Shown in pieces: positions 5,136 through 61,687 of a DNA stretch of 64,000 nt. The number at the start of each line of letters is the position of its first letter. Position 1 is the stretch's first letter. The notes below the pieces were generated by a model, which had not been told where the DNA came from, did no database searches, and was given only the letters and a program-made list of their open reading frames with translations. Origin of the DNA: Clostridiales bacterium (GTDB lineage Bacteria; Bacillota; Clostridia; Saccharofermentanales; Saccharofermentanaceae); NCBI GenBank assembly GCA_017513085.1, contig JAFWDK010000023.1, positions 24,343-88,342 of the forward strand. Reading direction: 5' to 3'. The position numbers were made by a program, and so were the translations under genes.

Positions 5136-5137
5136 TT

Positions 5138-37955: not shown

Positions 37956-37982
37956 CTTTCGTCTTTTTCCTGTTCCTGGTTT

Positions 37983-45013: not shown

Positions 45014-45173
45014 ATACTTCACCTCAATTATTTGCTGTATTGTTCAGATCCACACGTGAGTGATCTACACTCCGCGCCTAAAGGTGTATTGTACGCTATG
45101 GGGAGAAGAAAAGCAAATATCGGGGCAACAGAGATTTTTGATCTGCACACTGCCCCGGCGCGAAAAAACGGAG

Positions 45174-45782
45174 TCATTTCACCGCCTTGAGTATCCAGTA
45201 TCCTGACTCTTTCGCAATTACTTCGCAATTTCCGAACTTTTCGAGGAGATATTTCTCAGACGAAGGCGCCCCCTGCTTCTTCTGTAGCACGACATAAAGC
45301 CAACCGCCCTCCGAAAGATGCTCCCATGCGCCGTCATAAAAAGCGAAAACAGTCTGCTTGCCCGCACGGACCGGCGGATTGGTCAATACCAGGTCAAAGG
45401 CACCTTCCACGGAGGCGCAGCCGTCCGACTGGTGTACGTCCACACATTTCACGCTGTTGTTCTCTGCGTTTTCTTTAGCCAGTCCGAGCGCCCTCTGGTT
45501 AATGTCCACCATAGTCACTTCCATTGACGGGAACACACGCTTCATGATGATGCCGATCGGTCCGTAGCCGCAACCCAGATCCAGAAGTTTTCCCTTCTTG
45601 CGTCCATGCTCCGAAAGGTCGGAGATCGCCGTCTCCAGCAAGACTCTCGACCCGAAATCCAGGAACTTCTTGGAGAACACTTCGGAATCGGTGGCAAAGT
45701 AAAAATCCATGCCATGCATACGCACCTGGATCAAATGCCGATCCGACTCACCTTGCGGGTTTTCTTCGTAATAATGTGCCAA
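45174..45782 (-). CDS. Class I SAM-dependent methyltransferase (RsmC/YbxB-like)
   Basis: VFSKKFLDFGSRVL, LDLGCGYGPIG, TNPPVRAGK, KKQGAPS. TTG start inferred from the GGAGG RBS. Confidence 0.9.
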   Translation of the reverse strand: MAHYYEENPQGESDRHLIQVRMHGMDFYFATDSEVFSKKFLDFGSRVLLETAISDLSEHGRKKGKLLDLGCGYGPIGIIMKRVFPSMEVTMVDINQRALGLAKENAENNSVKCVDVHQSDGCASVEGAFDLVLTNPPVRAGKQTVFAFYDGAWEHLSEGGWLYVVLQKKQGAPSSEKYLLEKFGNCEVIAKESGYWILKAVK

Positions 45783-45806
45783 AAGCACTCTCCTCCAAAC
45801 TTCGTC

Positions 45807-46307
45807 TTATTCTTCGATCTTTTCGAAACGGTGTACGCCGTCACCCACTATTTCCAGCCACATGGAAGCGGGTCTTACCCAGATCCGGTAGGGAGGCTGA
45901 AGTCCGCGATAGACCACCATCCAGTCCTTGTTCTCCGTATTCCGGCCGACACCGAGCACTTCGTAAGTGTTGCCCTTATAATGGCGATACTTTCCTTGCG
46001 AAAAACCGGCATATTCCACGACCGCGTCTGCCGCCTGATGCCGCACCGTATCATTCTCGGCCTGTGACAAGACCGAAAGCTGGAGCAAAGCCTCCTGGCA
46101 GATCACCTGTTTCAGACAAGGGATAAGAAGCAGATTCCACTCCGGTTCTTTTTCCTCCACGACACGGGCAAGATCATTCCAATCCGCCTCACTGTATGCC
46201 TGAAGATCCGTCACGATCTTCTTCTCGATCGAAGCTCTTCTTTCAGCTTCCGTGGTCGCGGCAAGTTCCTGAATCTTTTTGTCCAGCCATTCAATACTCG
46301 GCAGCAT
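45807..46307 (-). CDS. DUF1653 domain protein with helical N-terminal extension
   Basis: C-terminal GKYRHYKGNTYEV..MVVYRGL..WVRPASMW..RF. Confidence 0.8.
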   Translation of the reverse strand: MLPSIEWLDKKIQELAATTEAERRASIEKKIVTDLQAYSEADWNDLARVVEEKEPEWNLLLIPCLKQVICQEALLQLSVLSQAENDTVRHQAADAVVEYAGFSQGKYRHYKGNTYEVLGVGRNTENKDWMVVYRGLQPPYRIWVRPASMWLEIVGDGVHRFEKIEE

Positions 46308-46345
46308 CTTCTCACCCCCAATAATGTCTTTTCCTGATAACGTCC

Positions 46346-46933
46346 TTACGGGATCATGTATTCCAGTGAAACGATCGAATTATCCTTTAATGTTACCAGA
46401 AGTACCGACGTACCTCTCTTAAATGTCATCGTCACATCCGTTGACTCATCCGGCTCACCATACTTGGTCTTCGCATCGTCAGCACTCATGCCGATCTCCA
46501 GTCCCTCCGGTGTTTTCACCAGATCCGAAGTGATCAGGACATCCGACACATAACAAGTGTCGCTGCCCTTCGCCTGGTAGGTCGTCAGTACCATGTTGGT
46601 GTAAGTATAAACATGATCTGTGCCATCGTGCGCGCAGGACGGCACGTCCAGACTTGACTTTGCCTCTCCCAGAGAAGCGAGCAGAGCTTCTGTATCGGTC
46701 GATCCCAGAAGGATGTCCGTGTTTTCATACTTGAACGTAAAGTTTCCTGTTGTATCCAGCGTAACCTCGACACTTCCGGAAGATTCACCGGATGTCTGCG
46801 CATTCTCCGCTGTAGTACCCGCAGTGGTTTCCGCCGCGGAAGATTTTGTGCCTGACACAGTCTTACTGTCCGAGCACGCTGTCATGCCCAAAGCCAGCAC
46901 CAGTGTCAGTACCAAAGAGCCAATTTTCTTCAT
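46346..46933 (-). CDS. Lipoprotein, hypothetical
   Basis: Lipobox MTAC, S/T-rich linker, KTPEGLEIGMS..YGEP motif. Confidence 0.7.
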   Translation of the reverse strand: MKKIGSLVLTLVLALGMTACSDSKTVSGTKSSAAETTAGTTAENAQTSGESSGSVEVTLDTTGNFTFKYENTDILLGSTDTEALLASLGEAKSSLDVPSCAHDGTDHVYTYTNMVLTTYQAKGSDTCYVSDVLITSDLVKTPEGLEIGMSADDAKTKYGEPDESTDVTMTFKRGTSVLLVTLKDNSIVSLEYMIP

Positions 46934-46999
46934 GTGTTTCTCTCCATAGTTTTTCGTTTATTGTCGCATTTTTGAGAACGACTTTCAATCACGGATCTG

Positions 47000-49900
47000 T
47001 CACTTTCCTTCCTTGTCATCCTCATTCTGCTCCTGTGCCTTATGGATATTGCTGATATCTTCGAAAGTACCTCCGCCGTTGTCATCCTCCGCACGGAACT
47101 CACCTTTTTCCACCAGCCGCAGGAACGCATCGACCACATCCGACGTCAGTTGTGTACCGGAGACCTCACGGATGATCGAGATCGCTTTATCAAAATTCAT
47201 GCGTTTTCTGTACGGACGATCCGAATACATCGCGTCAAAAGTATCCGCCACGGCAATGATCTGCGCCACACGCGGGATCTCCTCTCCCGAAATGCCTTTC
47301 GGATAACCACGGCCATCCGGACGTTCGTGATGGTCACGCGCGCCGATCGCCAGTTCCGGCATGATGCTGATATCCTTCAATACGTTATAACCTTTTCCGG
47401 AATGGGACTTGATCTCCTTAAACTCCTCATCGGTCAGCCGGCCGGGTTTATTCAAAGTCTCGATGGAAATACCCACCTTGCCGATATCGTGGAGGAGGGC
47501 AATGTTATAGTATTTCTCCACCGTCTCCTCATCGTAACCGAGTTCACGCGCAAGTTTCGCCGTATATTCGGCCACGCGAGTCGAGTGACCGTTTGTATAA
47601 CGGTCCTTCATATCGATTACTTTGGCAAAAGCTTCGACGATCTCGCGGATCAAGAGTTTCTGTTCTGCGGACTTTTTCTTGAGTTTCTCGATTTTTTTGC
47701 GGATAAAGATCGCGGTAAAAAGTACAGTCAGGAATATCACGAAACAAATACCCAGGAGATTAAACCAGCGCGTCTCGATCACCGCCACTCTCTTATGGAT
47801 CTGCACGGTCAGTTCTTTTTGCACATCACCGTGAGAATTCAAAAGCTGCAAACGGAACGTGTATTTTCCTCCACTGAGATTGGTATAATCGATCGGCTTG
47901 ATCTCACTTCTGCGGAGCGTGGTCGGAGTGCGGTCAAATCCCTCCAGAGAGTATGTCAACATAGGATCGACCAGCGAATAGTTAAAGCAATAGACATAGA
48001 TCGTCGTTTTCTGCGCATGCGGCTGTAATGTGAAAGCACCATCATGATCCGGATAGATCTTTTCTCCATCCACCTCAATATATGGTACAGAAATCAGAAT
48101 ATCGTCATCCACATCTTTACTTTCATCGATATTGGTCAGCACCACGCCGCTCGATCCGCTGATATAAAGGTCTCCGTTCTCCATAAGATCACTATAGGAG
48201 TTGGATGTGGCATAGCACGACAAGCCGTTTCTCATTCCATAGAAGAACGTCTGGATCTCTTCGTTTTTGATCATCGTTTCAGTACTGGTCACATATATTC
48301 CGTTACTGCTCAATACCCATATATCATCCGCCTTGTTCTGGTATATGTCGAAGTTGTTGGAATACGGGAAATTCTTGATCGTGATGACCTCGTAGTCCGA
48401 ATTCAGGTAAGCAATCGAATTACTGGTCACGACCCAGTACAGATCGCGGCGATGGTCCTTCTTGATGCGCATCACGACATCCGATCTCAGACCGTTGTCG
48501 GTATTGATATGCTTTACCCCGGAACCGGACAGCACATAGATACCGTCGCCGTCAGTTCCGATAAGGAAATCGCCGTTTTGAGCCTGGATCACGGTCAGGA
48601 TCTCGTCGTTATGGACGCCTTCGTTCTCGGAGTATACCTTCTCCACTTTGTTTCCGGAAACAATCGCCACACCACCCGTACAAGCTACGGCAAAAGCACC
48701 GTCCGCGCATTCGTATACCGTTCTTACACGGTTTGACGGAAGACCTTGGTCCATATCGAACACGACCGCGTTCCGGCCATCATAGCGCACAAGCGGATAT
48801 TCGCCAAATGAAGAGATCCAAAGGTTATTCTTAGAATCTCTTATGATGGATCGGATCTTCGATGTGGATAATAGTTTGATCAGGTCTTTCTCGGGCAGTT
48901 CCCCTCCGGATGCGTACACCGCTTGGGAAAGCGGTATCGAATCCACGATCGATCTGTTTTCCATAATAACCAGACCAGATGTCTTCGTGCCGATGAAAAG
49001 GCGGTCATTGTACATACAGGTCGAATATACAACATCGTTTTTCAGATCGTACTGTTCGTAAAGATTGCAGAAGCGGTTGGGCACGATCTTCATGACACCC
49101 TGCTGGGAAGAGACGAACCAGAGATTCTTCTGGTAATCGTCCATCATGCCTTCGATGGAAGTCGTCATCGGTATGTTTTCAAGCGGGATACATTTCCCGT
49201 CCGAAATACGACCGATGCCATTGTCGGTGCAGACCCAAATTTCCTCTCCGAGTTTTTGAATGGCATTAACGTATCCCAGAGGCGCAATATCGGCAATTGG
49301 TTCGGAGAATCCTTCAGACAGCAATCCGTAGTAGACCTGGGAACCTTTCGTCGCGCAATAGATATGATCCGGGTTTTCCGGATCCGGAAGGATCGCATGA
49401 ATGTCCGAAACACCCAGATCCTTAGGGGTTTTATACGATGTCAGCTCGCCGTCGCGCAGCGTAAAGATCGTTCCGTCGATCGTTAATGCGTAGATGGTAT
49501 TGTCCTGTCCGAGTTTGATCTGGCGGACATAGGCCCCCTTGATCTGCGGCGCATCCGCGCTCCGGATATTCATATTCCGGTCCACGATCGCCACGCCCTC
49601 CGTGGTCGCCAGATAGATCATACCGTTCTCGTCTTCCGCGATATCCTTTATCGAGAGAGACTGAAGGCCGTTCTGTTTATTAAAAATGTACCATTTTTCT
49701 CTTTCCAGCACACCCACACCGTTGTCGTTTGTGCCGACCCACAAGCGGTTCCGGGAATCGACGAACAACGTTACCACACTCGTGATCTGAGTTTTCGCTG
49801 AATCGATGCGCTCAAAGGTGTTTCCGTCATAGCGGATCAGACCGCTATAACTGCCGATCCACAAAAATCCGTCCGGAGTCTGCACGATCGCATTTGCTTC

Positions 49901-50149
49901 CGAAGTCGGAAGTCCATTGGAATTGTTATACAAAACAGGAGAATACCCTCGCGATATTCCGGAAAGTGATGTATCATCCGTTCCCGGCTTCGCGCTTTCC
50001 TCCACCAAAGCGGACATGCTCTCTATAGGATCACTCTCATCCGCCGCCAAGTGTCTGGGAAAAGCAAAAGGAAAAAGCCCGGACAACCCCACAAGCAAAG
50101 CAAGGCAGGCACTTCCAAGTGCTTCTGCATAAGATCTATTCCGTTTCAT
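47000..50149 (-). CDS. Membrane sensor: beta-propeller (Reg_prop) and Y_Y_Y domains fused to an HD-GYP phosphodiesterase
   Basis: Signal/TM segment, repeated 'D..G.LWIGT..G' blades, YSLEGFD..DYTNLSGGKYTF, TM helix, then HSTRVA, LLHDIGK, HHERPDGRGYP, VADTFDAM. Confidence 0.9.
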   Translation of the reverse strand: MKRNRSYAEALGSACLALLVGLSGLFPFAFPRHLAADESDPIESMSALVEESAKPGTDDTSLSGISRGYSPVLYNNSNGLPTSEANAIVQTPDGFLWIGSYSGLIRYDGNTFERIDSAKTQITSVVTLFVDSRNRLWVGTNDNGVGVLEREKWYIFNKQNGLQSLSIKDIAEDENGMIYLATTEGVAIVDRNMNIRSADAPQIKGAYVRQIKLGQDNTIYALTIDGTIFTLRDGELTSYKTPKDLGVSDIHAILPDPENPDHIYCATKGSQVYYGLLSEGFSEPIADIAPLGYVNAIQKLGEEIWVCTDNGIGRISDGKCIPLENIPMTTSIEGMMDDYQKNLWFVSSQQGVMKIVPNRFCNLYEQYDLKNDVVYSTCMYNDRLFIGTKTSGLVIMENRSIVDSIPLSQAVYASGGELPEKDLIKLLSTSKIRSIIRDSKNNLWISSFGEYPLVRYDGRNAVVFDMDQGLPSNRVRTVYECADGAFAVACTGGVAIVSGNKVEKVYSENEGVHNDEILTVIQAQNGDFLIGTDGDGIYVLSGSGVKHINTDNGLRSDVVMRIKKDHRRDLYWVVTSNSIAYLNSDYEVITIKNFPYSNNFDIYQNKADDIWVLSSNGIYVTSTETMIKNEEIQTFFYGMRNGLSCYATSNSYSDLMENGDLYISGSSGVVLTNIDESKDVDDDILISVPYIEVDGEKIYPDHDGAFTLQPHAQKTTIYVYCFNYSLVDPMLTYSLEGFDRTPTTLRRSEIKPIDYTNLSGGKYTFRLQLLNSHGDVQKELTVQIHKRVAVIETRWFNLLGICFVIFLTVLFTAIFIRKKIEKLKKKSAEQKLLIREIVEAFAKVIDMKDRYTNGHSTRVAEYTAKLARELGYDEETVEKYYNIALLHDIGKVGISIETLNKPGRLTDEEFKEIKSHSGKGYNVLKDISIMPELAIGARDHHERPDGRGYPKGISGEEIPRVAQIIAVADTFDAMYSDRPYRKRMNFDKAISIIREVSGTQLTSDVVDAFLRLVEKGEFRAEDDNGGGTFEDISNIHKAQEQNEDDKEGK

Positions 50150-50296
50150 TCAAACAGTATGCCACCTCGTTTCCCATTTATACCACTTTCCTAAAATTCA
50201 CTTTATCACTATGAAAATGCATGTGCAAAGGTTTCTAGCGATTGTTAATGGAAAGTTCTTATTTACGTTCGGGACACGGGCGTTTGTACACGGATC

Positions 50297-51340
50297 CTAC
50301 GCGTTTTTCGCCTCATCATATCTTTTTTCGACTTCCGCCCAGTATGCTTCCAGCTTCTTGTCTCCACGCGCGCTCGTAATGCCGTACTTTTCCACAAGGA
50401 TCTTTCCCAGGAAAGAGGCACATTTTTCCGCACCGGTGACGTTCATGTGAAGTCCGGCGTCGTAGGTATCCACGTTATAGTCGATGCCGATCTCAGACTC
50501 GGCAATATTCAGCATGTTAATGTAAAGAAGGTCATGTGCCTTCGCATACTCCACCATCTGCTCGTCCCACTCCTCGTACCAGTGCGGATACAGCGACGGC
50601 GACTTGATCAGGACCAGCTTGATCCCCTTCTCCTGACAAAGTTCCGTCATTAAATCGAGATAGGCCATGGCATAGTCACCAAACTTCGGGTCTGCCAAAG
50701 GTCTTGCCGGCGGCATCTCCCCGGCCGGCATGATCTCCGTTCGCAGGTAGTATCCGTTGAAAGACACCGTATCTTTCGTAAACCAATACTTGAAATCCTC
50801 GGACGTCAGCTCGTTCCAGCGGCTGTGATAGCGAAGGATCGGGAAGATATAGTCGATCATGTTCTCATCCTCGCACATGGACGCCTTGATCGCATTCCAT
50901 TTGCTCGAATTCCAGCGCATGCCGTCCAGCGCCATGCGGTTATAGGCCTCATTTTGCGGTTCATTATACATCAGGGAAAGAACATTGAACACCACTACAT
51001 CAGGCGTTTCATAGCGAAGCGCATCCTCAAGAAGGTAGTATGACTGCCATACCAGCTGCTGCGCGCCCCCCCGGATGAAACTGTTAATGCCGAATTCCCG
51101 CCAAAGCTGCACGGTCGAGAAATTCTCATATACTTCACAATCCCCGACGAAAAGCACTTGATGCCGGCCTTTTGCCTGATAATATTCGGCGGTGAGCGCG
51201 CCTTCCGTTACCTCGCCCATATATTTCGGGCGCAGGAGCAGATCTACCGCATACGTCAGCAAGGCAGAGAGGACCAGCAGCGCCAGGACCAGCGCCACAC
51301 GCTTGCATTTATTCTTTCTTGTATTCTGCTCTTCTGACAT
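50297..51340 (-). CDS. Membrane-anchored SGNH/DltD-like acyltransferase
   Basis: N-terminal TM helix, block I VLFVGDCE, late YDAGLHMNVTGA. Lies directly after the MBOAT gene. Confidence 0.75.
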   Translation of the reverse strand: MSEEQNTRKNKCKRVALVLALLVLSALLTYAVDLLLRPKYMGEVTEGALTAEYYQAKGRHQVLFVGDCEVYENFSTVQLWREFGINSFIRGGAQQLVWQSYYLLEDALRYETPDVVVFNVLSLMYNEPQNEAYNRMALDGMRWNSSKWNAIKASMCEDENMIDYIFPILRYHSRWNELTSEDFKYWFTKDTVSFNGYYLRTEIMPAGEMPPARPLADPKFGDYAMAYLDLMTELCQEKGIKLVLIKSPSLYPHWYEEWDEQMVEYAKAHDLLYINMLNIAESEIGIDYNVDTYDAGLHMNVTGAEKCASFLGKILVEKYGITSARGDKKLEAYWAEVEKRYDEAKNA

Positions 51341-51354
51341 ATCTCAACCTCGAT

Positions 51355-52980
51355 TCAGAATTGATTGTAAATGAACTGGGCGGCATCGTAGCCAAGACCG
51401 TACGCGCCGAACACGATAATGACAAGCGTCAGCACGTAAAAGATCGCCCAGCGCCCTGCAAACGGGATCTTCTTCTCCATTTTGTCACGGACAGAACCGG
51501 AACGTCCGATCATGCTGACAACGATCAGAAGGATCGTGCCAAGTCCCAGGATCACGTAGTCCGAACGGACAAGACCAAGTTCCAGAAGCGTACCGTTTCC
51601 GAAAGACTTCCAGTTCCATGTCGTAAACATCGTGCCGAACATCTTGAAGGTCAGCGGCACATCGCGGTAACAGTCGAATAATCGAAGCGCGCTCATGAGA
51701 AGGACAGTACGTCCGACCTGAAATGTCTTGTACGTCGTACTTCCGTCTGTGTGAAATCTCTTATGGAAACGGCGGTACAGCGGTTCCAGTTCCTGTGAGA
51801 TCATGATGACCACGAAGTTCCCAAGTCCCCATACTATGAAGTTCCAGGAAGCCCCGTGCCAGATACCGGTCGTGAACCAGACGATAAAGGAAGCCAGATA
51901 TACCGGAATACGTTTCCCGACCTTCTCACCAAGGTGTTTGCGGCTCCACTTGCCGAGCTTCAGCATCGGTCCACTGACCGAGATCGGGTAGAAAATATAA
52001 TCCGTAAACCACGTTCCCATCGTGATATGCCAGCGCCGCCAGTACTCCGCAATATTCTTACTGAAGAATGGCCGCTCGAAGTTTTCTTTCATCGGAATAC
52101 CAAGCATTTCCGCGATACCGATCGTAATGTCGATGCCACCCGTAAAATCCGCATAAAGCTCAAGTGCATAAAACATCATGACCAGAAATACATAGACACC
52201 TTTATAGTTTTCCGGCGTATCGATCATGGTATTCACCGCAGTCAGGATACGGTCAGCAATGACAACTTTCTTGAAATATCCCCAGATCACACGCTCAAGT
52301 CCACGCTCCAGCACCCGGCCGTTGAACGGATGCGGCGTGAAAAGCTCTTTGGCCAGATCACCATACCGGCTGATCGGGCCTTGCACCAGCTGGGGAAAGA
52401 AACCTACGAACAATGCATATTTGAAAAAGTTCTTCTGCGCTTCATGGCGTTCCCGGTAAACATCAATCACATAGCTGACCGCCTGGAATGTATAAAAAGA
52501 AATACCCATCGGCAGCGCGATCGTCAGAAAGCCGATCCTTTGGGAAGATCCGAATGCCGACAGAAGGCCGTTAATGTTGTGGATCGTAAAATTCGTGTAT
52601 TTTACTACCGCCAGGATCAGGAGAGCGATCGTAATGCCCACTCCCATGATGCGGCGGCGCTTCTTCTTCTGCGATTCTTTGTAACGTTTTCGCGCCTCCT
52701 TGCCGCACTCTTCCGGGGCACCTTCTCCACTTTTCTCCAGTGCTTTCAGCTCGGCAAAACGCGCATCAGCGCGGTTCTTGTTCCGCGAGATCAGAAGCGC
52801 GGCAACGTACGTGATCACAGTCACGCCGGCAATATAAAAGAGGAACTTCCATCCTGCGAAGAAATAAAACACATATGACCCCAGCAGAAGCAAGGGCCAC
52901 TTTGCCTTCTTCGGCAGCACGTAGTAAAGTGCCACCAGAAGGATCACAAATCCGATAAATTGGTAGGAAGTAAACAGCAT
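51355..52980 (-). CDS. MBOAT family membrane O-acyltransferase (DltB/AlgI type)
   Basis: LPMGISFYTFQ, FFPQLVQGPI, YWRRWHITMG, catalytic GIWHG, C-terminal FIYNQF. Confidence 0.93.
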   Translation of the reverse strand: MLFTSYQFIGFVILLVALYYVLPKKAKWPLLLLGSYVFYFFAGWKFLFYIAGVTVITYVAALLISRNKNRADARFAELKALEKSGEGAPEECGKEARKRYKESQKKKRRRIMGVGITIALLILAVVKYTNFTIHNINGLLSAFGSSQRIGFLTIALPMGISFYTFQAVSYVIDVYRERHEAQKNFFKYALFVGFFPQLVQGPISRYGDLAKELFTPHPFNGRVLERGLERVIWGYFKKVVIADRILTAVNTMIDTPENYKGVYVFLVMMFYALELYADFTGGIDITIGIAEMLGIPMKENFERPFFSKNIAEYWRRWHITMGTWFTDYIFYPISVSGPMLKLGKWSRKHLGEKVGKRIPVYLASFIVWFTTGIWHGASWNFIVWGLGNFVVIMISQELEPLYRRFHKRFHTDGSTTYKTFQVGRTVLLMSALRLFDCYRDVPLTFKMFGTMFTTWNWKSFGNGTLLELGLVRSDYVILGLGTILLIVVSMIGRSGSVRDKMEKKIPFAGRWAIFYVLTLVIIVFGAYGLGYDAAQFIYNQF

Positions 52981-53021
52981 ACTTTATCTCATCGTGAGGA
53001 ACATCGCATCCGCAGTGTTAT

Positions 53022-53252
53022 TTAATCGTCGTCCTCAAGCGTTAGGATCAGGTTCCACAGAGCCTGTGCCGAGTTAAAGTTCTCGGGGATCATGTGTTCC
53101 GCCGAGATCACGACATCGAACTTATCTGCAATTTCTCCCACGAGGGAGATAATATCGAAAGAATCCAGGATCTTGCCGTCCACCAGATTCGTTGCTGTCT
53201 CATAGTCCACATCCGGGTGAATCTCTTGTAATATCGCAATCAGTTCGTCCAT
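53022..53252 (-). CDS. Acyl/aminoacyl carrier protein (DltC-like)
   Basis: 76 aa and acidic, with phosphopantetheine site ILDSFDII and PENFNS. RBS GAGGTG precedes ATG 53252. Confidence 0.88.
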   Translation of the reverse strand: MDELIAILQEIHPDVDYETATNLVDGKILDSFDIISLVGEIADKFDVVISAEHMIPENFNSAQALWNLILTLEDDD

Positions 53253-53369
53253 AACTTGCACCTCATAAGGATCATTCATTCGGTATAATATCATTTTTCA
53301 AGCATTTAGAAAACTCACTTTGCCTTGGCACTCCCCGGGCATAGCGTCTTCATCATGCCAATATCCGGC

Positions 53370-54881
53370 TTACACCATGGCGGCCAGTGTCACCCGGTCC
53401 GTCTTTCCATTACTGGTCAGCGGGATCGTGTCCAGTTTCTTCGTGACATTCGGTACCATGTACCGCGGCAGGCTCTCCTTGAGAAGGACCTTCATGTCGG
53501 CTTCCTCTTTGTCTCCGCTATAGAAAAGCACTATCTTCTCTTTGGCTTTGTCATAGATGCAGGCCGCGCCCGTAATGCCATTGATCATCTGCGCATTGAC
53601 CTCGATCTCACCAAGTTCAATACGGTGTCCCATATGCTTGATCTGAAAATCTTTTCTCGACACGAACATCAGCTCACCACGCTCGTTGTAACGGCCGATA
53701 TCACCGGTCCGGTAGATGAGCTCCGGCCACGCCGTCTGAAGCGGGTTGCGCGTAAAAGCTTCCGATGTTTTTTCGGGATTATTCATATAACCCAGCGTCA
53801 AAGATGTACCGCGAATGCAGATCTCGCCCTGCTCTCCGCTTTCACGCGTGACTTCACGGTTATCCTCATCAAGCAGGATGATGTCCGTGTTATCGAACGG
53901 CCGTCCGATCGGGATCGCTTCACCATCTTCAAAATCTCTGTCCACCCGATAGTAACAGCACATGCCTGTGCCTTCCGTCGGTCCATAAAGGTTGGTAAAA
54001 GTCGCCTCCGGAAGCGCCTGACGCCACATTCTGAATTGTTTGATCGGAAATACTTCGGAGCCGAAAGCAATCGTCCGCAAGTATTTCGGGATCTCGGTCT
54101 TGAAGGTTTGAAACTTCGAAATGATCGTCAAAGCCGATACGACCCAGCACACCGTGTTGATCTTGTGTTCGTTCAGATACTGCACCAGTTTCAATGGCTG
54201 CATGAAGAGCGGCTTTGGAACAAAATACGTCGTCGCGCCAAAACGGATCGTCGGGAAAAGCTCTTTGAAACAAGCATCGAGATATAGTGGTGTCTGGTTG
54301 CCAAACACCGTTTCCGAAGAAAAACCGAGCACTTCGGAGAGCTGGTCGATATAGTCATTCACGGCACGATGGCAGCCCACCACGCCTTTCGGCACGCCTG
54401 TGGAACCGGATGTAAAAACAACATAGAGCGGATCCGTATCGATCGAGGAACGATACACTTCGTTCAGCGCCGCATCGTCGATCGTCTCATCCTCTAAGAT
54501 CTCCGAATACTTCACGATCCTGCCCTGAAACCCCAGTTCAAGTGCTTTTTCCGATGTAAAATCATCACAGATCAGCAGAGGCGCCTGAACATTTTCCAGG
54601 ATCAAGTGGATGCGGACGGATGGCATCTCTGCATCGATCGGCACATAGAAACTTCCGGCGCGGATCACACCGAAAAAAGCAGCCACTTCTTCAGGGGACT
54701 TCTCCATATAAATCACGATCGGGCTTTTTCTGATCCCGCAAGACAGAATGAATGTCCCGATCCGATCTACGGCGTGATCCAGCTGTTGAAACGTCAGGAT
54801 CGAGTTTTCTCCGCAAAAAGCAGCCTTGTCCGGGAAGCGTCCCGCGGTATTTTTCAGGTTTTGAAGCACATGATTATGCAT
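53370..54881 (-). CDS. Stand-alone amino acid adenylation enzyme (DltA-like)
   Basis: YVVFTSGSTGVPKG, NLYGPTE, GEICI, YRTGD, QIKHMGHRIELGEIE, LTSNGKTDR. Confidence 0.92.
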   Translation of the reverse strand: MHNHVLQNLKNTAGRFPDKAAFCGENSILTFQQLDHAVDRIGTFILSCGIRKSPIVIYMEKSPEEVAAFFGVIRAGSFYVPIDAEMPSVRIHLILENVQAPLLICDDFTSEKALELGFQGRIVKYSEILEDETIDDAALNEVYRSSIDTDPLYVVFTSGSTGVPKGVVGCHRAVNDYIDQLSEVLGFSSETVFGNQTPLYLDACFKELFPTIRFGATTYFVPKPLFMQPLKLVQYLNEHKINTVCWVVSALTIISKFQTFKTEIPKYLRTIAFGSEVFPIKQFRMWRQALPEATFTNLYGPTEGTGMCCYYRVDRDFEDGEAIPIGRPFDNTDIILLDEDNREVTRESGEQGEICIRGTSLTLGYMNNPEKTSEAFTRNPLQTAWPELIYRTGDIGRYNERGELMFVSRKDFQIKHMGHRIELGEIEVNAQMINGITGAACIYDKAKEKIVLFYSGDKEEADMKVLLKESLPRYMVPNVTKKLDTIPLTSNGKTDRVTLAAMV

Positions 54882-54890
54882 ATTATTCTC

Positions 54891-55580
54891 CTATCGCATA
54901 CATTCGCGCACACAGGCCGCCGCCAAAACGTCGATGATGTCGATGTATTTTTCATCCAGATCCAGGTCCAGTTTCGCTTCGGAAAGTTCGGTACATCCGA
55001 GAACGATAGATTCCGCGCCACTCTCGAAAAGGCCGATCGCCACTCGGGAGAACGTTTTCGGAGAGATTGGGATGCCTTGCTTAACGCACTTATAGATCAT
55101 GTCCATCACATCCTGCTGCCCTTCTTTTTCCGGCCAGAAGCAAGTCACACCATATCCTGTCAGTACGTCGTCATAGATCCTGCTGATCCTGGCTCCGTCA
55201 GTGGCCATGATACCGACTTTCGTCACGCCTTTTTCCCAGCAGACTTCGCCGAGTTCCCGGATTGCGTGCAGAACAGAAAGCCCGATCCCTTCCTCCAGCT
55301 CGCTATGAAAAGCGTGTGCAGTAATGCATGGGATCGCCAGAACCTCCGCTCCGTTTTCACGGAGTGTCCGTCCGACTTTGATCAGAGCCGGCCGCGGATC
55401 CTCTGCCGCAGGATCCCGCGAAAGCAGGAATGCTGTACGATCCGGTATTTGCGGCATTGAGTAGATCAAGGTCTCAATATGATCCTGGTCTCGTTTAGCG
55501 GGCGTCAGATCGACGACCCGACGGTAGAAATACGCAGTCGCCCATGGTCCTAAGCCTCCGATGATCCCTAACTTTTTCAA
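54891..55580 (-). CDS. Aspartate/glutamate racemase family protein (aspartate racemase-like)
   Basis: LGIIGGLGPWAT, DQDH, IPDRT, with two catalytic Cys motifs IPCITAH and LGCTEL. TTG start. Confidence 0.92.
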   Translation of the reverse strand: MKKLGIIGGLGPWATAYFYRRVVDLTPAKRDQDHIETLIYSMPQIPDRTAFLLSRDPAAEDPRPALIKVGRTLRENGAEVLAIPCITAHAFHSELEEGIGLSVLHAIRELGEVCWEKGVTKVGIMATDGARISRIYDDVLTGYGVTCFWPEKEGQQDVMDMIYKCVKQGIPISPKTFSRVAIGLFESGAESIVLGCTELSEAKLDLDLDEKYIDIIDVLAAACVRECMR

Positions 55581-55625
55581 TTCGTTTTTTCCTCTTCTCT
55601 TCTTCGATCCGTCCGATGCAACGCT

Positions 55626-57293
55626 TTACGGCACCTGGATCTCATATTTGCTTTCGTCATAGTAGAAATATCCCCTATGTGAATCAGAATATTCTTTCAT
55701 CTGTTTGGATGTCCACATGAAGAAACGTGTACCGTCCTCCTTTGTCAGTGCATCACAGAAATACCAGACACCTTCGATCTTGACGGCGTTCCAGAAGTGC
55801 TGGGCATATGTGATCGGATATCTTTCCACCATAAAGGTCTCAATTCCGGCGCGAGTATAAAGCGCATGGCAAGCTGAAGCAACATTGAAACAGTCTCCGA
55901 TCCGGTTCTTGATACCATCGTAAGCACCCTGCACCCAGGTCACTTTCTCCGCATGGCCCTTGTAAGTGATGCTCCAGTCAACCCAGTTAAAGATTGCTTC
56001 CACCTTTTCCTTCTCGGACATACCATCGCGCAGGATCTGATCCAGTACCTGATCGCAAAGCGCCCAGAGATCATCTTCCGTATACGGGCGATACACGACG
56101 GTCACGGTGATTTCTTCTTTCGTCTCATTTCCGGCGCCGTCCACCGCGCTGTAAACAACTTTATATGTTCCTTCCTGCGTCAGATCCACCTGGGAATTAT
56201 CTACGGTAAACGTAATATCCGGATCCGCGTTATCTGTAACGGTAATTCCTTCTTTGTAGGCGATGCTCTGGTTCGTCAGAACCGTGATATTCTTCATACC
56301 GGTAAGAACCGGCGGCTCTGTATCAGCTGTAAGCACGATATGCGCCGTTACGATCTTTTCATTGCCGCCCTGGTCGGTCAGCCGGATCTGCACATCCCTT
56401 TCTCCGGGCTGTTCGAAATGCGGATCTTCCACGAATTCCACATTTACATTGGTAGCGTCAGACAAGCCCTCGATCAGATCCTTCGCTTCGCGCGGATAAG
56501 AAGCGAACCCTTCGTAGCGAATACCTTTCGCTTCCGGCGGCTTCGTATCTTTCAGGTGTAAAACACTGTCGTATCTGACTCCGTCAACGGTAAACGAGAT
56601 CGTATAATCTCCAGGCACATTCATGTCGATACCCGCAAGCGACGTCTCTATTTTTGCCGTTTTTTCCCCGAAGGCAAAATCACTCTCGCCCGGTCTTGTA
56701 TCGCCGGTCTCCATCGTGATCTCCGGGTAAATGCCGATCACACGCAAAGATGTGCGGACCTGCGTCAGATTGTTTCCTTTATCGGTACAGTTGATCAGGA
56801 CATCCTGTTCGCCGACTTTTTGAAAGTCCGGAGTCTGGACAAATGTTGTCGAGCACTCACTCTCATCTACCACGCTCGTGATGAAATCCTCCACGTTAAG
56901 CGTCTGGCCAAACATGACCACCTGTGGCTTTGCTTCCAGTTTCGGCGCGATAGTGTCCGTCACGATCAGTTTCGACTTATAGGAACGGCTGCCCAACTGG
57001 ATCTCGACCGGGTATTCGCCCGGAACATGGACATCAAAAGCAGACGTACCATACTTAAACGAAGCCGATTTCCGATCGAAACCGAACCGCACGAATTCTT
57101 CCGCGGAAACCGCCGTTCCGGCCTCCACACAGCACTCTTTATACACACGTTTTTCGAAATAAATATACAAGAAAACACCGGCCAGGACACATAACAACGC
57201 CAATGTGATCCCGATTGCGACCGGGAGCTTTCTTGAGCGCTTTTTCTTCTTGGCAAAAGGATCTCTTACTGGATTCGGATTACGATGTTTCAC
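55626..57293 (-). CDS. Membrane-anchored Ig-like repeat protein with C-terminal transglutaminase-like domain
   Basis: TM helix, repeats marked by DT.(A/P)P, then GDCFNVA..AGI..HFWNAV..WYFCD (Cys-His-Asp). Confidence 0.8.
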   Translation of the reverse strand: MKHRNPNPVRDPFAKKKKRSRKLPVAIGITLALLCVLAGVFLYIYFEKRVYKECCVEAGTAVSAEEFVRFGFDRKSASFKYGTSAFDVHVPGEYPVEIQLGSRSYKSKLIVTDTIAPKLEAKPQVVMFGQTLNVEDFITSVVDESECSTTFVQTPDFQKVGEQDVLINCTDKGNNLTQVRTSLRVIGIYPEITMETGDTRPGESDFAFGEKTAKIETSLAGIDMNVPGDYTISFTVDGVRYDSVLHLKDTKPPEAKGIRYEGFASYPREAKDLIEGLSDATNVNVEFVEDPHFEQPGERDVQIRLTDQGGNEKIVTAHIVLTADTEPPVLTGMKNITVLTNQSIAYKEGITVTDNADPDITFTVDNSQVDLTQEGTYKVVYSAVDGAGNETKEEITVTVVYRPYTEDDLWALCDQVLDQILRDGMSEKEKVEAIFNWVDWSITYKGHAEKVTWVQGAYDGIKNRIGDCFNVASACHALYTRAGIETFMVERYPITYAQHFWNAVKIEGVWYFCDALTKEDGTRFFMWTSKQMKEYSDSHRGYFYYDESKYEIQVP

Positions 57294-57316
57294 TTGTTCA
57301 TTCCTCGATTAACGGA

Positions 57317-58033
57317 TCACTGCTTCTTGATCTCAGACTCCAACACTTTTGCAGTCCATTTCGCATCGATCAGTTCATAGCAGGCAGTCTTCTTCTTTGG
57401 CAGCTTATCTTCAAACAACCGGATCATTTCTTCATACAACCCGTCCGGAATAGCGGCAAACAGCGTCTTCTCATCTCTGGTAATGATGACGAATCCGTCT
57501 TTGCCATCTTTCTTCTCATAAAGCACCTGCACGGCTTTGATGTCCGGATTCTGCTTGGTGAACTGTGAGAACACGAAAGCTTTTGTCAATTCAATATAGC
57601 GGTCATCCAGGCCATTGTCGAAGATCTTGATCTTCTCACAGAGTTCATTCGGATTTCTAACGGCACGCATAGTGCAAACCATCGCGGCCTTAAGCATATC
57701 CGGCGACCATGTGTTCTGCTGGGCATTCATCTTCTCCAGAGCATCTTCTGTGTTTCCCGGAAGCAGATACACCATCAAGGTCTGCCCCATGTCGTCGTAA
57801 AGGCACGGATAAACGATTGAAACCTTCTCTCCGCATTCCTTGCAAGTGTACTTAAAGAAAGAGCCATCCAGAACCTGCTGCTTCTCTTCCGGGTGAAGAG
57901 ATACGTTTATGCAAGCACGCAACTGTATCTTCTTCTTCGTTTTGCACTTCGGGCAAGTGATCTCTGCCTCGACCGGCTTATATCTTTCCTGCTCATTAGG
58001 AAGTAATGGATGCGGTGTAGATTTGTTTGTCAT
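57317..58033 (-). CDS. CpXC domain protein
   Basis: ITCPKC..INV..P..K..LDGSFF..CKECG..YPCLYDD, ELCEKIKIF. Confidence 0.82.
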   Translation of the reverse strand: MTNKSTPHPLLPNEQERYKPVEAEITCPKCKTKKKIQLRACINVSLHPEEKQQVLDGSFFKYTCKECGEKVSIVYPCLYDDMGQTLMVYLLPGNTEDALEKMNAQQNTWSPDMLKAAMVCTMRAVRNPNELCEKIKIFDNGLDDRYIELTKAFVFSQFTKQNPDIKAVQVLYEKKDGKDGFVIITRDEKTLFAAIPDGLYEEMIRLFEDKLPKKKTACYELIDAKWTAKVLESEIKKQ

Positions 58034-58036
58034 AAA

Positions 58037-59992
58037 TTATTCTCCTTTATTTTTCATCTTAAAACAGAAATCAGCGATTCCTTCACAGATCTTGTCCTGA
58101 TATTCCGGATCCGACAAAAGCCGGTCGTCTTCTTCGTTAGACATATAGCCCATCTCCAGAAGGAACGACGGCACGGTATTCGCCCAGTTCAATCCGCTAT
58201 AGGTCGTCGAAGCATTACATCCGCGATATTTTGCTCCGGTTGCTTCCGCATAGCACTTGCCCAGCATCTCGCCCCATTCCACCTGCTTGTCCGCAAGATC
58301 GCCCTTGCTGCATACAAAAACGCCTACGCCACGGACATCGGCACTATCTGCGGCATCGCAGTGCAGGCGCAGGAACACGTCCGCATTACAATCCACGGCG
58401 ATCTTCGCTCTCTGGATATTAGAAACATCCACATCCGCCGTTTCCCGCGTCATAACCACTTTGGCACCCAAAGAGACCAGATGGTCACGAAGTTTCAGTC
58501 CGATCTCCAGATTGACTTCATGTTCAGGACGCTTGGTAGCCACTCCACTGGTTCCGGCAGAAACCTTCGCCTTCTGCTCATCCGACCAAGGTGCCAACGG
58601 TTCCGTATCGCTATTTGCCTTCGCCTGATGACCCGGGTCAATACAAATAACCATTCCCGAAAGATCGAACTTCGCGTCCGGAGCCGAAACCGTCTCCGTA
58701 CCGGACTCCGAAGTCTCAGTGCTCAGCGGACTCGGCACAACTTCAAAGCTCACTTTCCAGTATTCTTCGCCGCGCATATCGTAGACCACAAAGTAATACT
58801 TGCCCTCCGGCAATACTTTGGCATCTTCCGGCTTCAGCGGAAGGATGTACTCCTGATCCTCTTGTCCGTCCGGCGGCAACAAAGAACCTTCACAAGCCGC
58901 AGGGCCCTGTTCCTTATAGTCCTTGTCGGTAAAGACCTTATAGTCTAACCTGATATCTTTATATTTTACCTCAGAGCTGAGTTTGGCGGCGATATATTCC
59001 GTCCCGTAAGGATACTCCTGCACTTTCGCGCCGGCCTCATCGATCATGGCGATCTCGGTGAATTCAAACGCGATCGGGATCCTCGTTCCATCAGGGAAAA
59101 CTTCGATCGTTCCTTCAATGAAGCACTTGTTATTCGGATCGTACATTTTACACGTTAACAAGCCGACAGGAAGTTTTCCCGACGGATTGAGCGCCACGTC
59201 GATAATATCCGAATTGCCATCCATCGTGCACGTTCCGCCTTCCAGAATATTACCCTTGTCGTCAATAAACTCATATCGGATATTGATATCGTTATAATAG
59301 TCCCATGTCGTCACATAATATCTGACTTCGTCGACCGTCTCGTGCAGACCCGGTATAAGGTTGTATTTCCCATCGTACCAATAGGTCTCATACACAGAAA
59401 TCGGAACAAAGCTCTTCGAGACGGAAGCGACCGTTTCCGTCGTACTAAAGTTCAGTTTCTCGATAAAGCCGAATAGTCCTTCCAAAAAAGCACTTGCGTC
59501 GGCAGCTGCGATCTTCCACTGTGTTTCTTTGAGTCCGGCGTGGAAAGAATACTCACATTTCTTCTTTTCCGCATTCTGAATCAGTCCGATCACGTCCGAA
59601 ACCGTAGCATCCTGAGGAATCGCTCCCAGAAGCGCATCCGTATCGATGTAGGACACGGATAATGCAGAAACAGTATCTGTTCCGTCTTCCTTCACATCAT
59701 CTACAGAGTATGAAAACTTTTTCAGGCATGCATCCAGGATTCCGGATACCTCGGATCTGGAAAATGTACGGATCTTATCGATTTCATTACAGGAACCATC
59801 TACCAGAACAGCCATTTTATCGTATTTACTGCTCTTCAAATAGGCGCAAAAATCGTCCAGCAGCGCCTCTGTCTGTTCAACGGGACTTTTCTCGCGTTTT
59901 CCGCCTTTCTTCTCATTCTTCCGGCAACCGCAAACGCAAGTCAGCAATAAAAGCACAACAAGTAATCCTGCTGTGATCCTCTTGGCAAACAT
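58037..59992 (-). CDS. Lipoprotein with C-terminal N-acetylmuramoyl-L-alanine amidase (Amidase_3)
   Basis: Lipobox VCGC, IDPGHQ, EHEVNL, MTRE, RLHCDA, LLEMGYMSN. Confidence 0.88.
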   Translation of the reverse strand: MFAKRITAGLLVVLLLLTCVCGCRKNEKKGGKREKSPVEQTEALLDDFCAYLKSSKYDKMAVLVDGSCNEIDKIRTFSRSEVSGILDACLKKFSYSVDDVKEDGTDTVSALSVSYIDTDALLGAIPQDATVSDVIGLIQNAEKKKCEYSFHAGLKETQWKIAAADASAFLEGLFGFIEKLNFSTTETVASVSKSFVPISVYETYWYDGKYNLIPGLHETVDEVRYYVTTWDYYNDINIRYEFIDDKGNILEGGTCTMDGNSDIIDVALNPSGKLPVGLLTCKMYDPNNKCFIEGTIEVFPDGTRIPIAFEFTEIAMIDEAGAKVQEYPYGTEYIAAKLSSEVKYKDIRLDYKVFTDKDYKEQGPAACEGSLLPPDGQEDQEYILPLKPEDAKVLPEGKYYFVVYDMRGEEYWKVSFEVVPSPLSTETSESGTETVSAPDAKFDLSGMVICIDPGHQAKANSDTEPLAPWSDEQKAKVSAGTSGVATKRPEHEVNLEIGLKLRDHLVSLGAKVVMTRETADVDVSNIQRAKIAVDCNADVFLRLHCDAADSADVRGVGVFVCSKGDLADKQVEWGEMLGKCYAEATGAKYRGCNASTTYSGLNWANTVPSFLLEMGYMSNEEDDRLLSDPEYQDKICEGIADFCFKMKNKGE

Positions 59993-60190
59993 TTCTTTCT
60001 CCTTTTCCGTATAAAAATCCGTTTATAGTTTGCGCCTTTCCTGTTAAATTGGCAAGCACGACTATTTCTTTTCGGTTAATTCTTTTTTAAATTACATGAT
60101 TCTGCTATGAATCCTCTTTTTTCTGATACCGCTCCTGTGTTATTATTTGTTTGTTGAGTTTTCTTATTTGGTTTGGGAGGAGCTCCGCGC

Positions 60191-61687
60191 ATGAAACTGT
60201 CGGATTTGACAAAATACCAGAATATCACCATTCAGTGTCATGATAATCCGGATCCAGATGCCATCGCATCAGGCTTTGCTTTGTATAGATATTTCAGCAG
60301 CCACCGTTGCAATGTCCGTCTGATTTACAGTGGACGGTATAAAATCACGAAAGTAAATCTGACCATGATGATCGAGATGTTCCGCATCCCGATCGAGTAT
60401 TGTGTATCCGACTTCGGGTCCTGTGATCTTCTGATCACTACCGACTGTCAGTACCGTTCCGGAAACGTGCGTTTCTTTCCGGCTCCAACCGTAGCCGTCA
60501 TCGATCATCACCAATTCTGCGGGATTGATGTGGACTACTCTTTTATCCAATCCAATGTCGGCAGCTGTTGTACTCTTGTCTGGCAGCTTTTCCGTAACGA
60601 AGGTATCGACATCAATAAAGATCCGCTTTGCGCGACCGCGCTTTACTATGGACTTTACTGTGATACGAACCAATTCTCCGAGCTTTATCACCCGCTCGAT
60701 CGTGATATGCGTGATGCGCTGGCTTTTGACCAGGCTGCGCTGGTGCGTCTTTCCAACTCCAATCTTTCTTTGAGCGAGCTTTCTATTGCCGCACAGGCAA
60801 TGAACGATTTCACTTTCGACAGCGACCTTCGCTTAGCTCTTGTCCAGGTTCAGCCTTGCGATCCGAATATTCTCGGTCTCATCAGTGATTTTCTGATCCA
60901 GGTCGACCGGGTGGATATCTGTATCGCCTTTAATGAGACTTATACCGGTTATAAACTCTCCATTCGAAGCTGTATCAAGGAAACCAAGGCCAGCGAGCTT
61001 GCTGAATACATCACGGAAGATGTCGGCTATGGTGGTGGTCATAAGAATAAGGCCGGTGGCTTTATTTCCAAAGACGATTACTCTGCCCAGTACGGACAGA
61101 TGCGCATGATGCAGTTCCTGCGAAGCAAACTTATGAAGTACTCCGGCGAGTGCACGATCCTGCGCGCCGGCATCGACAAGATGAGTACCGAAGGCACGAA
61201 GCGTTACCGCAAGAAGAGAATTCCGATCGGTGTTGTTTTCTGCAAAGATTTCGTTACTACCAATACTCCTCTGCTCGTCCGTACGCTTGAGGGAGATATC
61301 GATATCAATGCCAGCGCGGATACATGCATCATGGTTGGCATCCAGGGAGAGATCACTCCGATCTCCGCTTCGAAGTTCAAAGAAACTTACGATATGTGCA
61401 ATGCCAAGTCTCATGTTTCTTCGGAATACCGCCCGACGATCAAGAATCTGCGTAGTGGCGAGAGCTTCGATCTTGCCAAGCATATCCGCTCTTGCGTATC
61501 CAAGGGTACCGAATATGTTTACGTTAAACCAATCACCAATTCCGTCAAGATATTCACACTCTGGGATGCGAACAACTATGTTCGTGGAATCGAGGGCGAC
61601 TATATCGCTGTTCGTGAGAATGATCTTTCCGACTTTTATATCATTGAGAAGAACCTGTTTGCCAGAACCTACGAACTGGCCGAGTAA
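60191..61687 (+). CDS. DHH/DHHA1 family phosphoesterase with C-terminal extension
   Basis: HDNPDPDAIAS, TDCQ, IDHH, YCDT, GGGHKNKAGG. RBS GGAGGA precedes ATG 60191. Confidence 0.88.
   Translation: MKLSDLTKYQNITIQCHDNPDPDAIASGFALYRYFSSHRCNVRLIYSGRYKITKVNLTMMIEMFRIPIEYCVSDFGSCDLLITTDCQYRSGNVRFFPAPTVAVIDHHQFCGIDVDYSFIQSNVGSCCTLVWQLFRNEGIDINKDPLCATALYYGLYCDTNQFSELYHPLDRDMRDALAFDQAALVRLSNSNLSLSELSIAAQAMNDFTFDSDLRLALVQVQPCDPNILGLISDFLIQVDRVDICIAFNETYTGYKLSIRSCIKETKASELAEYITEDVGYGGGHKNKAGGFISKDDYSAQYGQMRMMQFLRSKLMKYSGECTILRAGIDKMSTEGTKRYRKKRIPIGVVFCKDFVTTNTPLLVRTLEGDIDINASADTCIMVGIQGEITPISASKFKETYDMCNAKSHVSSEYRPTIKNLRSGESFDLAKHIRSCVSKGTEYVYVKPITNSVKIFTLWDANNYVRGIEGDYIAVRENDLSDFYIIEKNLFARTYELAE

Follow-up and report, generated by a model that had tools for sequence, protein, structure and literature searches.

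The stretch analysed here (the window) is 64,000 nucleotides (nt) of contig JAFWDK010000023.1, from a Clostridiales bacterium. We propose that a gene cluster on its minus strand encodes a carrier-dependent MBOAT-SGNH aminoacyl-transfer system that works by a logic like that of the Dlt pathway, belongs to a separate family, and most likely carries D-aspartate; we put the probability of this reading at roughly 0.55. A first-pass annotation of the same DNA had described five co-oriented genes as a Dlt-like pathway with its own Asp/Glu racemase: the racemase, a stand-alone adenylation (A) enzyme, a carrier protein, an MBOAT, and a membrane-anchored SGNH protein. The list of open reading frames (ORFs) agrees with this description, with all five genes on the minus strand (Table 1). 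Their intergenic gaps are 9, 75-117, 41, and 14 nt, the A gene starting 9 nt after the racemase stop codon (54882-54890), as had been noted before.

Table 1. Genes of the proposed aminoacyl-transfer cluster and the sensor gene inserted in it, with positions in the window (aa, amino acids)
Feature	Coordinates	Strand	Length	Basis of assignment
Racemase	54891-55580	minus	229 aa	ORF list and family models
Stand-alone adenylation (A) enzyme	53370-54881	minus	503 aa	ORF list and family models
Carrier protein	53022-53294	minus	90 aa as called	Weak matches below cut-off
MBOAT	51355-52980	minus	541 aa	Pfam MBOAT
SGNH-fold protein	50297-51340	minus	347 aa	Predicted fold
Transglutaminase-like exoprotein	55626-57293	minus		Transglut_core and Ig-like domains
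Small lipoprotein	46346-46933	minus		BLIP/DUF4309-like predicted fold
Propeller/HD-GYP-type sensor gene	47000-50149	minus	1049 aa	Pfam HD_5 and Reg_prop

Relatives of the cluster were sought with the A enzyme in species-representative genomes, and at least 584 were confirmed, in Clostridia genomes. The loci compared below are the best 80 of these, with A-domain identities of 54 to 91%, and the presence of each gene was scored by tblastn and blastp of the window proteins. The taxon labels of the 80 loci are Clostridia/Bacillota except for L005, labeled Spirochaetales, and L014, which has no taxon label. Forty-seven loci with at least 3 kb upstream and at least 6 kb downstream of the A gene made up the full-flank set. 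All 47 carry a transglutaminase-like gene, 46 carry the carrier protein gene, 46 the MBOAT gene, and 43 the SGNH gene, while the racemase and lipoprotein genes are present in 39 and 37, respectively. The gene arrangement is thus not due to chance, and the succession of A enzyme, carrier, MBOAT, and SGNH protein that had first been recognized as Dlt-like is real and conserved. The proposed limit of five genes has to be revised, however, since the transglutaminase-like gene is linked more tightly than the racemase and the lipoprotein gene nearly as often. The conserved unit is larger, and the transglutaminase-like protein and the lipoprotein also belong to it. In most distant loci the lipoprotein gene lies directly 3' of the SGNH gene. 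In three of the four full-flank loci scored as lacking an SGNH gene (L010 to L012), the MBOAT gene is followed by several kilobases of genes on the opposite strand; their closest relatives, L002 to L004, likewise have opposite-strand genes at this point, between the MBOAT and SGNH genes, and the SGNH gene of L010 to L012 probably lies beyond the flank.

The order of the cluster varies among the relatives. Extra genes interrupt it between the A and SGNH genes in L002 to L004 and L006 to L012. Most of these loci have opposite-strand genes of about 213 to 465 aa after the MBOAT gene, to which L007 adds a same-strand ORF of 483 aa, and in L004, L009, and L012 the A and carrier genes are separated by a gene with a MutS domain (tested against Pfam in L004 and L012). 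L015 has two MatE transporter genes and an opposite-strand ORF at the same position, and upstream of its main MBOAT-SGNH-lipoprotein set L023 has another. L076 and L080 are two contigs of one metagenome-assembled genome (MAG), which thereby holds two copies of an asnA/transglutaminase-like/A/asnS arrangement. The Spirochaetales-labeled MAG L005 has the whole cluster with 87% A-domain identity and nests in the Clostridia clade of the window, so that its placement is likely a binning error or a recent transfer. A tblastn search of a plasmid collection with the A domain returned 1,541 records, all below 60% identity, the best being a Paenibacillus plasmid-labeled record at 36% (L081). This record was rejected as a relative. 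Its A enzyme (36% identity) and carrier protein (42% identity) are encoded between positions 8977 and 12667 in an unrelated cluster, next to genes for GNAT, KAS III, SDR, and metallo-beta-lactamase proteins; MBOAT, SGNH, and racemase genes are all missing there, and the pathway is a different, cytoplasmic one.

One line of evidence on the cargo is the A enzyme, which matches Pfam AMP-binding (222.8 bits) and the amino acid adenylation model TIGR01733 (325.8 bits; cut-off, 317.4). Its pocket code, read from motif anchors and checked on an alignment with LgrA, is DAKCAGLGMK. The code is identical in 74 of 81 aligned rows; of the others, three are truncated and four have one or two conservative changes. 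It is the same with or without a linked racemase. Asp at pocket position 235 (D202) is found in 81 of 81 rows and Lys at position 517 (K493) in 78 of 81, the other three being truncated. We take the former to bind the alpha-amine and the latter the carboxylate, and the retention of both predicts that the substrate is an alpha-amino acid. Position 239 is Lys in all 81 rows. As a basic residue it fits an acidic side chain and not D-Ala or a fatty acid, so that the pocket code, as a prediction, argues against D-Ala as the substrate.

The racemase is well described by family models, with 111.4 bits to Asp_Glu_race (PF01177; cut-off, 31) and 181.9 bits to TIGR00035 (cut-off, 93.1). Against the solved aspartate racemase of Pyrococcus horikoshii (1JFL) it gave a full-length match (residues 1 to 226, 174 bits, E = 2.6e-50), while it scored only 25 to 30 bits against glutamate racemase models with cut-offs of 146 to 328. 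The enzyme had earlier been called an Asp/Glu racemase, and the match to 1JFL narrows this to the aspartate type. The two catalytic cysteines reported for it are present: R48, C85, K167, and C196 are invariant in 60 of 60 rows, and R48 and K167 presumably bind the side chain carboxylate. From these features the protein is assigned to the two-cysteine, pyridoxal 5'-phosphate (PLP)-independent, aspartate racemase type, with activity on Asp predicted. Linkage could be assessed where the sequence upstream of the A gene extends for at least 1 kb, as it does in 75 loci. Of these, 58 have the racemase gene, 53 of them immediately upstream of the A gene, and where the order is rearranged (L063 and L066) the racemase gene moves together with the transglutaminase-like gene.

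Further genes at some loci also bear on the cargo. An asparagine synthetase gene, AsnB (TIGR01536, 439 bits; cut-off, 267), lies 3' of the SGNH gene in L014, L020, L023, and L026. In another group the transglutaminase-like/A pair is flanked upstream by AsnA (L076, L077, and L080) and downstream by the gene for asparaginyl-tRNA synthetase, AsnRS (L076, L077, L078, and L080). The two asparagine synthetases adjoining the cluster are unrelated enzymes that occur in separate clades, and Asp is the substrate of both. In L029, L030, and L036 the SGNH gene is followed by a gene for D-aminoacyl-tRNA deacylase, which is consistent with cytoplasmic production of a D-amino acid. Taken together, the type of the racemase, the Asn genes, and the deacylase point indirectly to D-Asp.

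The same neighbors could be read in favor of asparagine. Asn itself might be loaded, or the aspartyl group might be amidated by the neighboring synthetases, and the displayed asparagine or D-asparagine would give an adduct that is cationic like that of D-Ala. An AsnB-type enzyme amidates the D-Asp cross-bridge in Lactococcus, and AsnB is found inside the cluster in four loci and AsnA and/or AsnRS around the transglutaminase-like/A pair in four. We consider this decidedly unlikely, since Asn genes occur in only 8 of 80 loci, none was found among the window ORFs scanned, and Lys239 suits a carboxylate better than an amide.

Loaded amino acid would be received by the carrier protein. Its gene likely starts at position 53252, giving a product of 76 aa, because the homologues are 75 to 81 aa long. 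The protein has weak matches to PP-binding_2, DltC, and other acyl carrier protein models, all below the cut-off, and the serine for phosphopantetheine lies in the motif LDSFD, whose D44 and S45 are invariant across 68 of 68 rows. The MBOAT matches PF03062 (60.5 bits; cut-off, 27), and H375, present in 67 of 67 rows, would be the catalytic His from its position in the domain. The MBOAT's C terminus is FIYNQF (codons 51358-51375), which matches the FxYxxF acyl-shuttle motif; 66 of 67 rows have F536, Y538, and F541, the remaining row being truncated where its contig ends. In the available text of PMC12148441, the MBOAT passes the acyl group to the Tyr of a C-terminal FxYxxF acyl-shuttle motif, which Dlt systems have on the microprotein DltX and systems using acetyl-CoA (PatA and others) have on the MBOAT itself, as a fusion and with no carrier protein. 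No separate DltX was found in the window's cluster, and the gaps between the five genes, 9 to 117 nt, are too short to hold another gene. By its sequence, the MBOAT appears to have the function of DltX fused to it. With a fused motif beside a carrier and an A enzyme, the cluster is a hybrid of the two published layouts.

The protein encoded after the MBOAT gave no Pfam or NCBIfam match, and a profile of its family searched against PDB sequences gave one chance-level match and no DltD. It was modeled with AlphaFold2 (AF2) from an alignment of the window protein and 53 of 60 homologues, selected by a length filter of 330 to 400 aa. The model, with a predicted local distance difference test (pLDDT) value of 90.3, was compared with the PDB by Foldseek and matched GDSL/SGNH hydrolases with a probability of 1.0 and E values of about 1e-4; DltD (6pfx) appeared at rank 48 (E = 8e-3). 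The SGNH assignment is thus made from the fold, because the sequence searches gave no match. The protein has an N-terminal membrane anchor and would be an extracytoplasmic transferase. After the first strand, where SGNH enzymes have GDS, it has GDCE, which puts Cys68 at the position of the nucleophile Ser. C68, G91, N119, D291, D294, and H298 are invariant in 61 of 61 rows, with G91, N119, and H298 as candidates for the Gly, Asn, and His blocks of SGNH enzymes, and motif order together with predicted secondary structure suggests that Cys68 is the nucleophile.

Two further proteins would act on the outside. The transglutaminase-like protein matches Transglut_core (PF01841, 38.6 bits; cut-off, 23) and Bact_surface_Ig-like (36.7 bits), and the triad Cys468-His499-Asp514 in its C-terminal transglutaminase-like core is invariant in 78 of 78 rows. 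Searched against PDB sequences, only its Ig-like domain was matched (E = 1e-4). An N-terminal hydrophobic anchor, signal peptide, or lipobox is present in 71 of 78 rows, indicating that the protein works outside the membrane. The small lipoprotein, a co-conserved accessory of the cluster, gave no family match. An AF2 model of it, based on the window sequence plus 36 of 44 homologues (eight whose N termini carry long extensions were omitted), had a pLDDT of 82.1, with values above 90 for residues 61 to 195, and Foldseek matched it to YjgB/DUF4309, YfeY, and BLIP-like chains with E values of 3e-4 to 6e-3. The mature part has one invariant Cys, C100 in the motif SCAxxG, in 37 of 37 rows. In a protein atlas, the nearest clusters were nameless or auto-named "SGNH/GDSL hydrolase" or "lipoprotein," and no new lead came from them.

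The SGNH gene reads in frame into the lipoprotein gene in L027 (7292-9103) and L034 (12233-13882), giving products of 604 and 550 aa, respectively. We did not accept this as a fusion of the two proteins, which is topologically doubtful because the lipoprotein signal peptide is kept in the middle of the product; the read-through may instead be an effect of ORF calling. A prediction of the complex between the SGNH ectodomain and the lipoprotein domain scored 0.57, compared with 0.19 for the best of three controls. The runs agreed in at least 80% of contacts, and the pLDDT of the partner was at least 90. The mark applied is attained by 58 of 80 solved complexes as against 2 of 110 mismatched pairs; with scores of 0.60 or below, only 7 of the 80 attain it, along with both mismatches. 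The result was graded as weak support and was not counted as binding.

Domains, motifs, conservation, and linkage are the observations given above, and from them we infer the identity of the acidic residue, its chirality, and each chemical step of the following scheme. The cytoplasmic two-cysteine racemase would convert L-Asp to D-Asp, the substrate being predicted. The A enzyme would activate the alpha-carboxyl group and load the amino acid on the phosphopantetheine arm linked to the serine of the carrier. By the mechanism published for DltX and PatA, the MBOAT would then move the aminoacyl group across the membrane onto its own Tyr538, on the outer face. From there the SGNH-fold protein would take the group on Cys68, presumably as a thioester, and pass it to an acceptor in the envelope, for which teichoic acid, a wall polysaccharide, peptidoglycan, and protein are candidates. 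The transglutaminase-like enzyme and the lipoprotein would act at or after this last step, as the final transferase, an editor, or an adaptor. The first-pass annotation had envisaged a simple ester on a wall polymer such as teichoic acid, as in D-alanylation, and this is weakened by the presence of Cys rather than Ser at the nucleophile position of the SGNH protein. The annotation's argument from charge, in which a net-neutral zwitterionic ester would replace the cationic D-Ala, is likewise a conjecture. With a Cys nucleophile and a papain-fold acyl-transfer enzyme on the outside, an amide product is a live possibility beside the teichoic acid ester. In one form of this, the group would pass in an ATP-free extracytoplasmic relay from the Tyr ester on the MBOAT to the Cys thioester on the SGNH protein and on to the Cys of the transglutaminase-like enzyme, ending as an amide with an amine of the wall. 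The amine could be, for example, a side chain of the peptidoglycan stem peptide or of a surface protein, and the Cys-bearing lipoprotein possibly takes part. We offer this relay tentatively and on balance doubt it.

Several observations weigh against a D-aspartate system of this kind. The placement of Cys68 relies on motif order and a predicted fold, and a second invariant Cys, C235, could instead pair with Cys68 as a disulfide. In L076 to L080 the transglutaminase-like and A genes occur by themselves, with no carrier, MBOAT, or SGNH gene seen in the locus sequence examined. Asn-gene and deacylase neighbors are found in only 11 of 80 loci, from few independent events. The racemase scores 193.7 bits against the model for the cysteate racemase CuyB (cut-off, 190), and nine relatives score 190.7 to 205.2. 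The available text of PMC11193023 places CuyB in the aspartate racemase family and gives a nearby CuyA sulfo-lyase as its expected context. Among the ORFs scanned around the cluster there was no CuyA-type or PLP-dependent lyase, and in most of the racemases scored the CuyB model did no better than the general model TIGR00035. The racemase is absent from 17 of the 75 assessable loci despite an identical A-domain code, and compared with reference codes, DAKCAGLGMK is nearer to that for Glu (sharing D, A, K, G, and K) than to that for Asp. The last two points each lead to another cargo.

The pocket code raises the case for glutamate, carried by the same machinery either as D-Glu from the glutamate racemase of the cell or as L-Glu; on this view the linked racemase would serve as an accessory or would itself act on Glu. 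Positions 235, 236, and 239 (D, A, and K) and G301 equal those of a nonribosomal peptide synthetase (NRPS) code for Glu, DAKDLGVVDK. Since D-Glu is present in every cell that makes peptidoglycan, a glutamate cargo would also explain the 17 loci with no linked racemase. Against this, the racemase resembles an aspartate racemase over its full length and falls far below the cut-offs of the glutamate racemase models, and the recurring neighbors are Asn/Asp genes rather than Glu genes. We regard glutamate as unlikely, and D-aspartate remains the preferred cargo.

The distribution of the racemase leads to the second case. A tree of the A domains was built from 77 of 81 rows, after four that were truncated or split had been dropped and extensions due to read-through had been trimmed. 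On this tree the 17 racemase-less loci form two clades and four long-branch single loci, which requires at least six gains or losses. The first clade is labeled Oscillibacter, Flavonifractor, and Intestinimonas, and the second consists of L074 and L076 to L080. No substitute racemase was found among 44 flanking ORFs scanned near racemase-less clusters. The co-occurrence of racemase and pathway that had been suggested as a check was thus borne out at most loci (58 of 75) and failed in two clades and four single loci. Since the racemase-less loci have the same A code, either the D-form comes from elsewhere in their genomes or the L-form is used. The racemase might accordingly be a mere metabolic neighbor of a pathway that loads an L-amino acid, as its repeated gain or loss beside an unchanged code could suggest. 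We give this a low probability, because in 53 of 75 loci the racemase gene lies directly between the transglutaminase-like and A genes, because it moves with the transglutaminase-like gene, and because three loci have the D-aminoacyl-tRNA deacylase. The reading that we retain is one in which the linked racemase supplies D-Asp.

The nearest known system is Dlt itself, and the A enzyme, MBOAT, and carrier have DltA, DltB, and DltC among their best named NCBIfam matches, so that an ordinary but divergent D-alanylation operon has to be considered. The scores fall far below the equivalog cut-offs: 271.4 bits to TIGR01734 (cut-off, 559.85) and 274.5 to NF003417 (476) for the A enzyme as DltA, 153.3 bits to TIGR04091 (375) for the MBOAT as DltB, and 17.4 bits to TIGR01688 (52.35) and 24.7 to NF003464 (68) for the carrier as DltC. 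Because all three sets of models are so far from their cut-offs, the cluster is not a Dlt orthologue. There is likewise no DltD match and no separate DltX, and the fused motif, the Cys at the nucleophile position, Lys239, and a racemase of the Asp type rather than an alanine racemase all speak for another pathway, so that D-alanylation is highly improbable. What the two have in common is the route, which in Dlt, by the available text of PMC12148441, also runs from an adenylation enzyme through a carrier and an MBOAT to the Tyr of an FxYxxF motif and then to a membrane-anchored SGNH-fold protein. The cluster described here differs from Dlt in carrying the motif on the MBOAT, in having Cys at the SGNH nucleophile position and Lys239 in the pocket, and in bringing its own Asp-type racemase, a transglutaminase-like enzyme, and a lipoprotein.

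Its likeness to the MBOAT-SGNH O-acetyltransferases PatA/PatB and AlgI/AlgJ/AlgX lies in the C-terminal FxYxxF motif fused to the MBOAT and in the separate SGNH-fold partner. Those systems use acyl-CoA and no carrier, as far as the available text of PMC12148441 describes them, whereas the present cluster has a dedicated A enzyme and carrier and has Cys at the position of Ser.

Two other pathways use D-Asp in a related way. In enterococci and lactococci, D-Asp enters peptidoglycan cross-bridges by means of an aspartate racemase and an ATP-grasp D-aspartate ligase. Here, too, an aspartate-type racemase would supply a cell envelope pathway, but the acid would be adenylated and thioesterified, with transfer outside the membrane, as the genes suggest. 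The first-pass annotation had found no such ligase, and in agreement with this a Pfam scan of 47 window ORFs detected no ATP-grasp domain. The racemase McyF, which feeds D-(methyl)aspartate to a module of the microcystin NRPS, offers a parallel of another kind, an Asp/Glu-family racemase together with an adenylation domain to which the D-acid would go directly. It belongs to a cytoplasmic assembly line for a secondary metabolite, whereas export by the MBOAT is proposed here, and, with 174 bits, the window's racemase matches the archaeal aspartate racemase far better than it matches McyF (48 bits).

In the literature we found no paper in which a DltA/MBOAT-type pathway is connected with an aspartate racemase or with a transglutaminase-like protein, though supplements and surveys may mention such clusters, and the terms D-aspartylation and D-glutamylation did not occur in the literature found. 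New features of the cluster are the predicted type of cargo, the combination of a fused shuttle motif with a carrier protein, the Cys at the nucleophile position, and the two additional conserved partners. Among the cases that we found, the cluster is the first in which the nucleophile position of the SGNH-fold partner is occupied by Cys. It is also the first found of a carrier-fed MBOAT with its own shuttle motif; in the published model, as given in the available text of PMC12148441, fused-motif MBOATs use acyl-CoA.

The cluster thus appears to follow Dlt logic with a different cargo and a different end chemistry, and its carriers include many Lachnospiraceae and Oscillospiraceae as well as related Clostridia of gut and rumen; Agathobacter, Pseudobutyrivibrio, Intestinimonas, and Flavonifractor are among the labels of the loci. 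In the textbook view, Gram-positive bacteria use D-alanylation by Dlt to adjust the charge of their envelope, how well they resist cationic peptides, their autolysis, and the binding of phages. Should the cargo be D-Asp, these abundant commensals would decorate their surface with an acidic D-amino acid, with consequences for recognition by the host, adsorption of phages, binding of cations, and the source of D-aspartate in the gut. The relay, if it operates, would be a second route of D-Asp into Gram-positive walls, located outside the membrane, and the first MBOAT-SGNH system to N-acylate rather than O-acylate.

In the window, the SGNH and lipoprotein genes are separated by an inserted sensor gene (Table 1) encoding a Reg_prop beta-propeller (73.9 bits), Y_Y_Y, a transmembrane region, and an HD-GYP-type HD_5 domain (108.2 bits). 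Among the 80 loci, full-length homologues of the sensor occur only in the nearest relatives of the window (L001, L002, L003, L006, and L007), and L042 and L043 gave weak partial matches (36 to 37% identity over 15% of the query). The sensor gene is therefore lineage specific and not part of the core, and in the lineage of the window it may couple the system to cyclic di-GMP signaling. A scan of positions 44000 to 61000 for promoters and terminators was uninformative on the limits of the operon, with 16 promoter-like sites where 19.2 were expected and 22 terminator-like sites where 15.3 were expected.

Directly upstream of the cluster (57317-59992, minus strand) are genes for a CpXC zinc-ribbon protein and a lipoprotein-type N-acetylmuramoyl-L-alanine amidase of 651 aa, with gaps of 3 and 23 nt. 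They are kept at the cluster only in the 14 closest relatives; the adjoining peptidoglycan hydrolase could hint at a link to peptidoglycan. A second, unrelated transglutaminase-core protein, a membrane protein of 795 aa, is encoded at 1856-6070 (minus strand) together with a 300-aa ORF with no family match and a MoxR-type AAA ATPase. An ORF of 1,124 aa at 29332-32706 (minus strand), for which no Pfam match was obtained at an E value of 1e-5, lies in the most G+C-rich stretch of the window (0.546 at 30001-32000) and is followed by two tandem DUF885 proteins (32786-36647, minus strand). Beside ABC-2 transporter genes (36828-39856), a 281-aa ORF at 39846-40691 (minus strand) matches the AMP-binding profile only over the profile's first 110 or so positions; it may encode an acyl-adenylate enzyme that is truncated or unusual.

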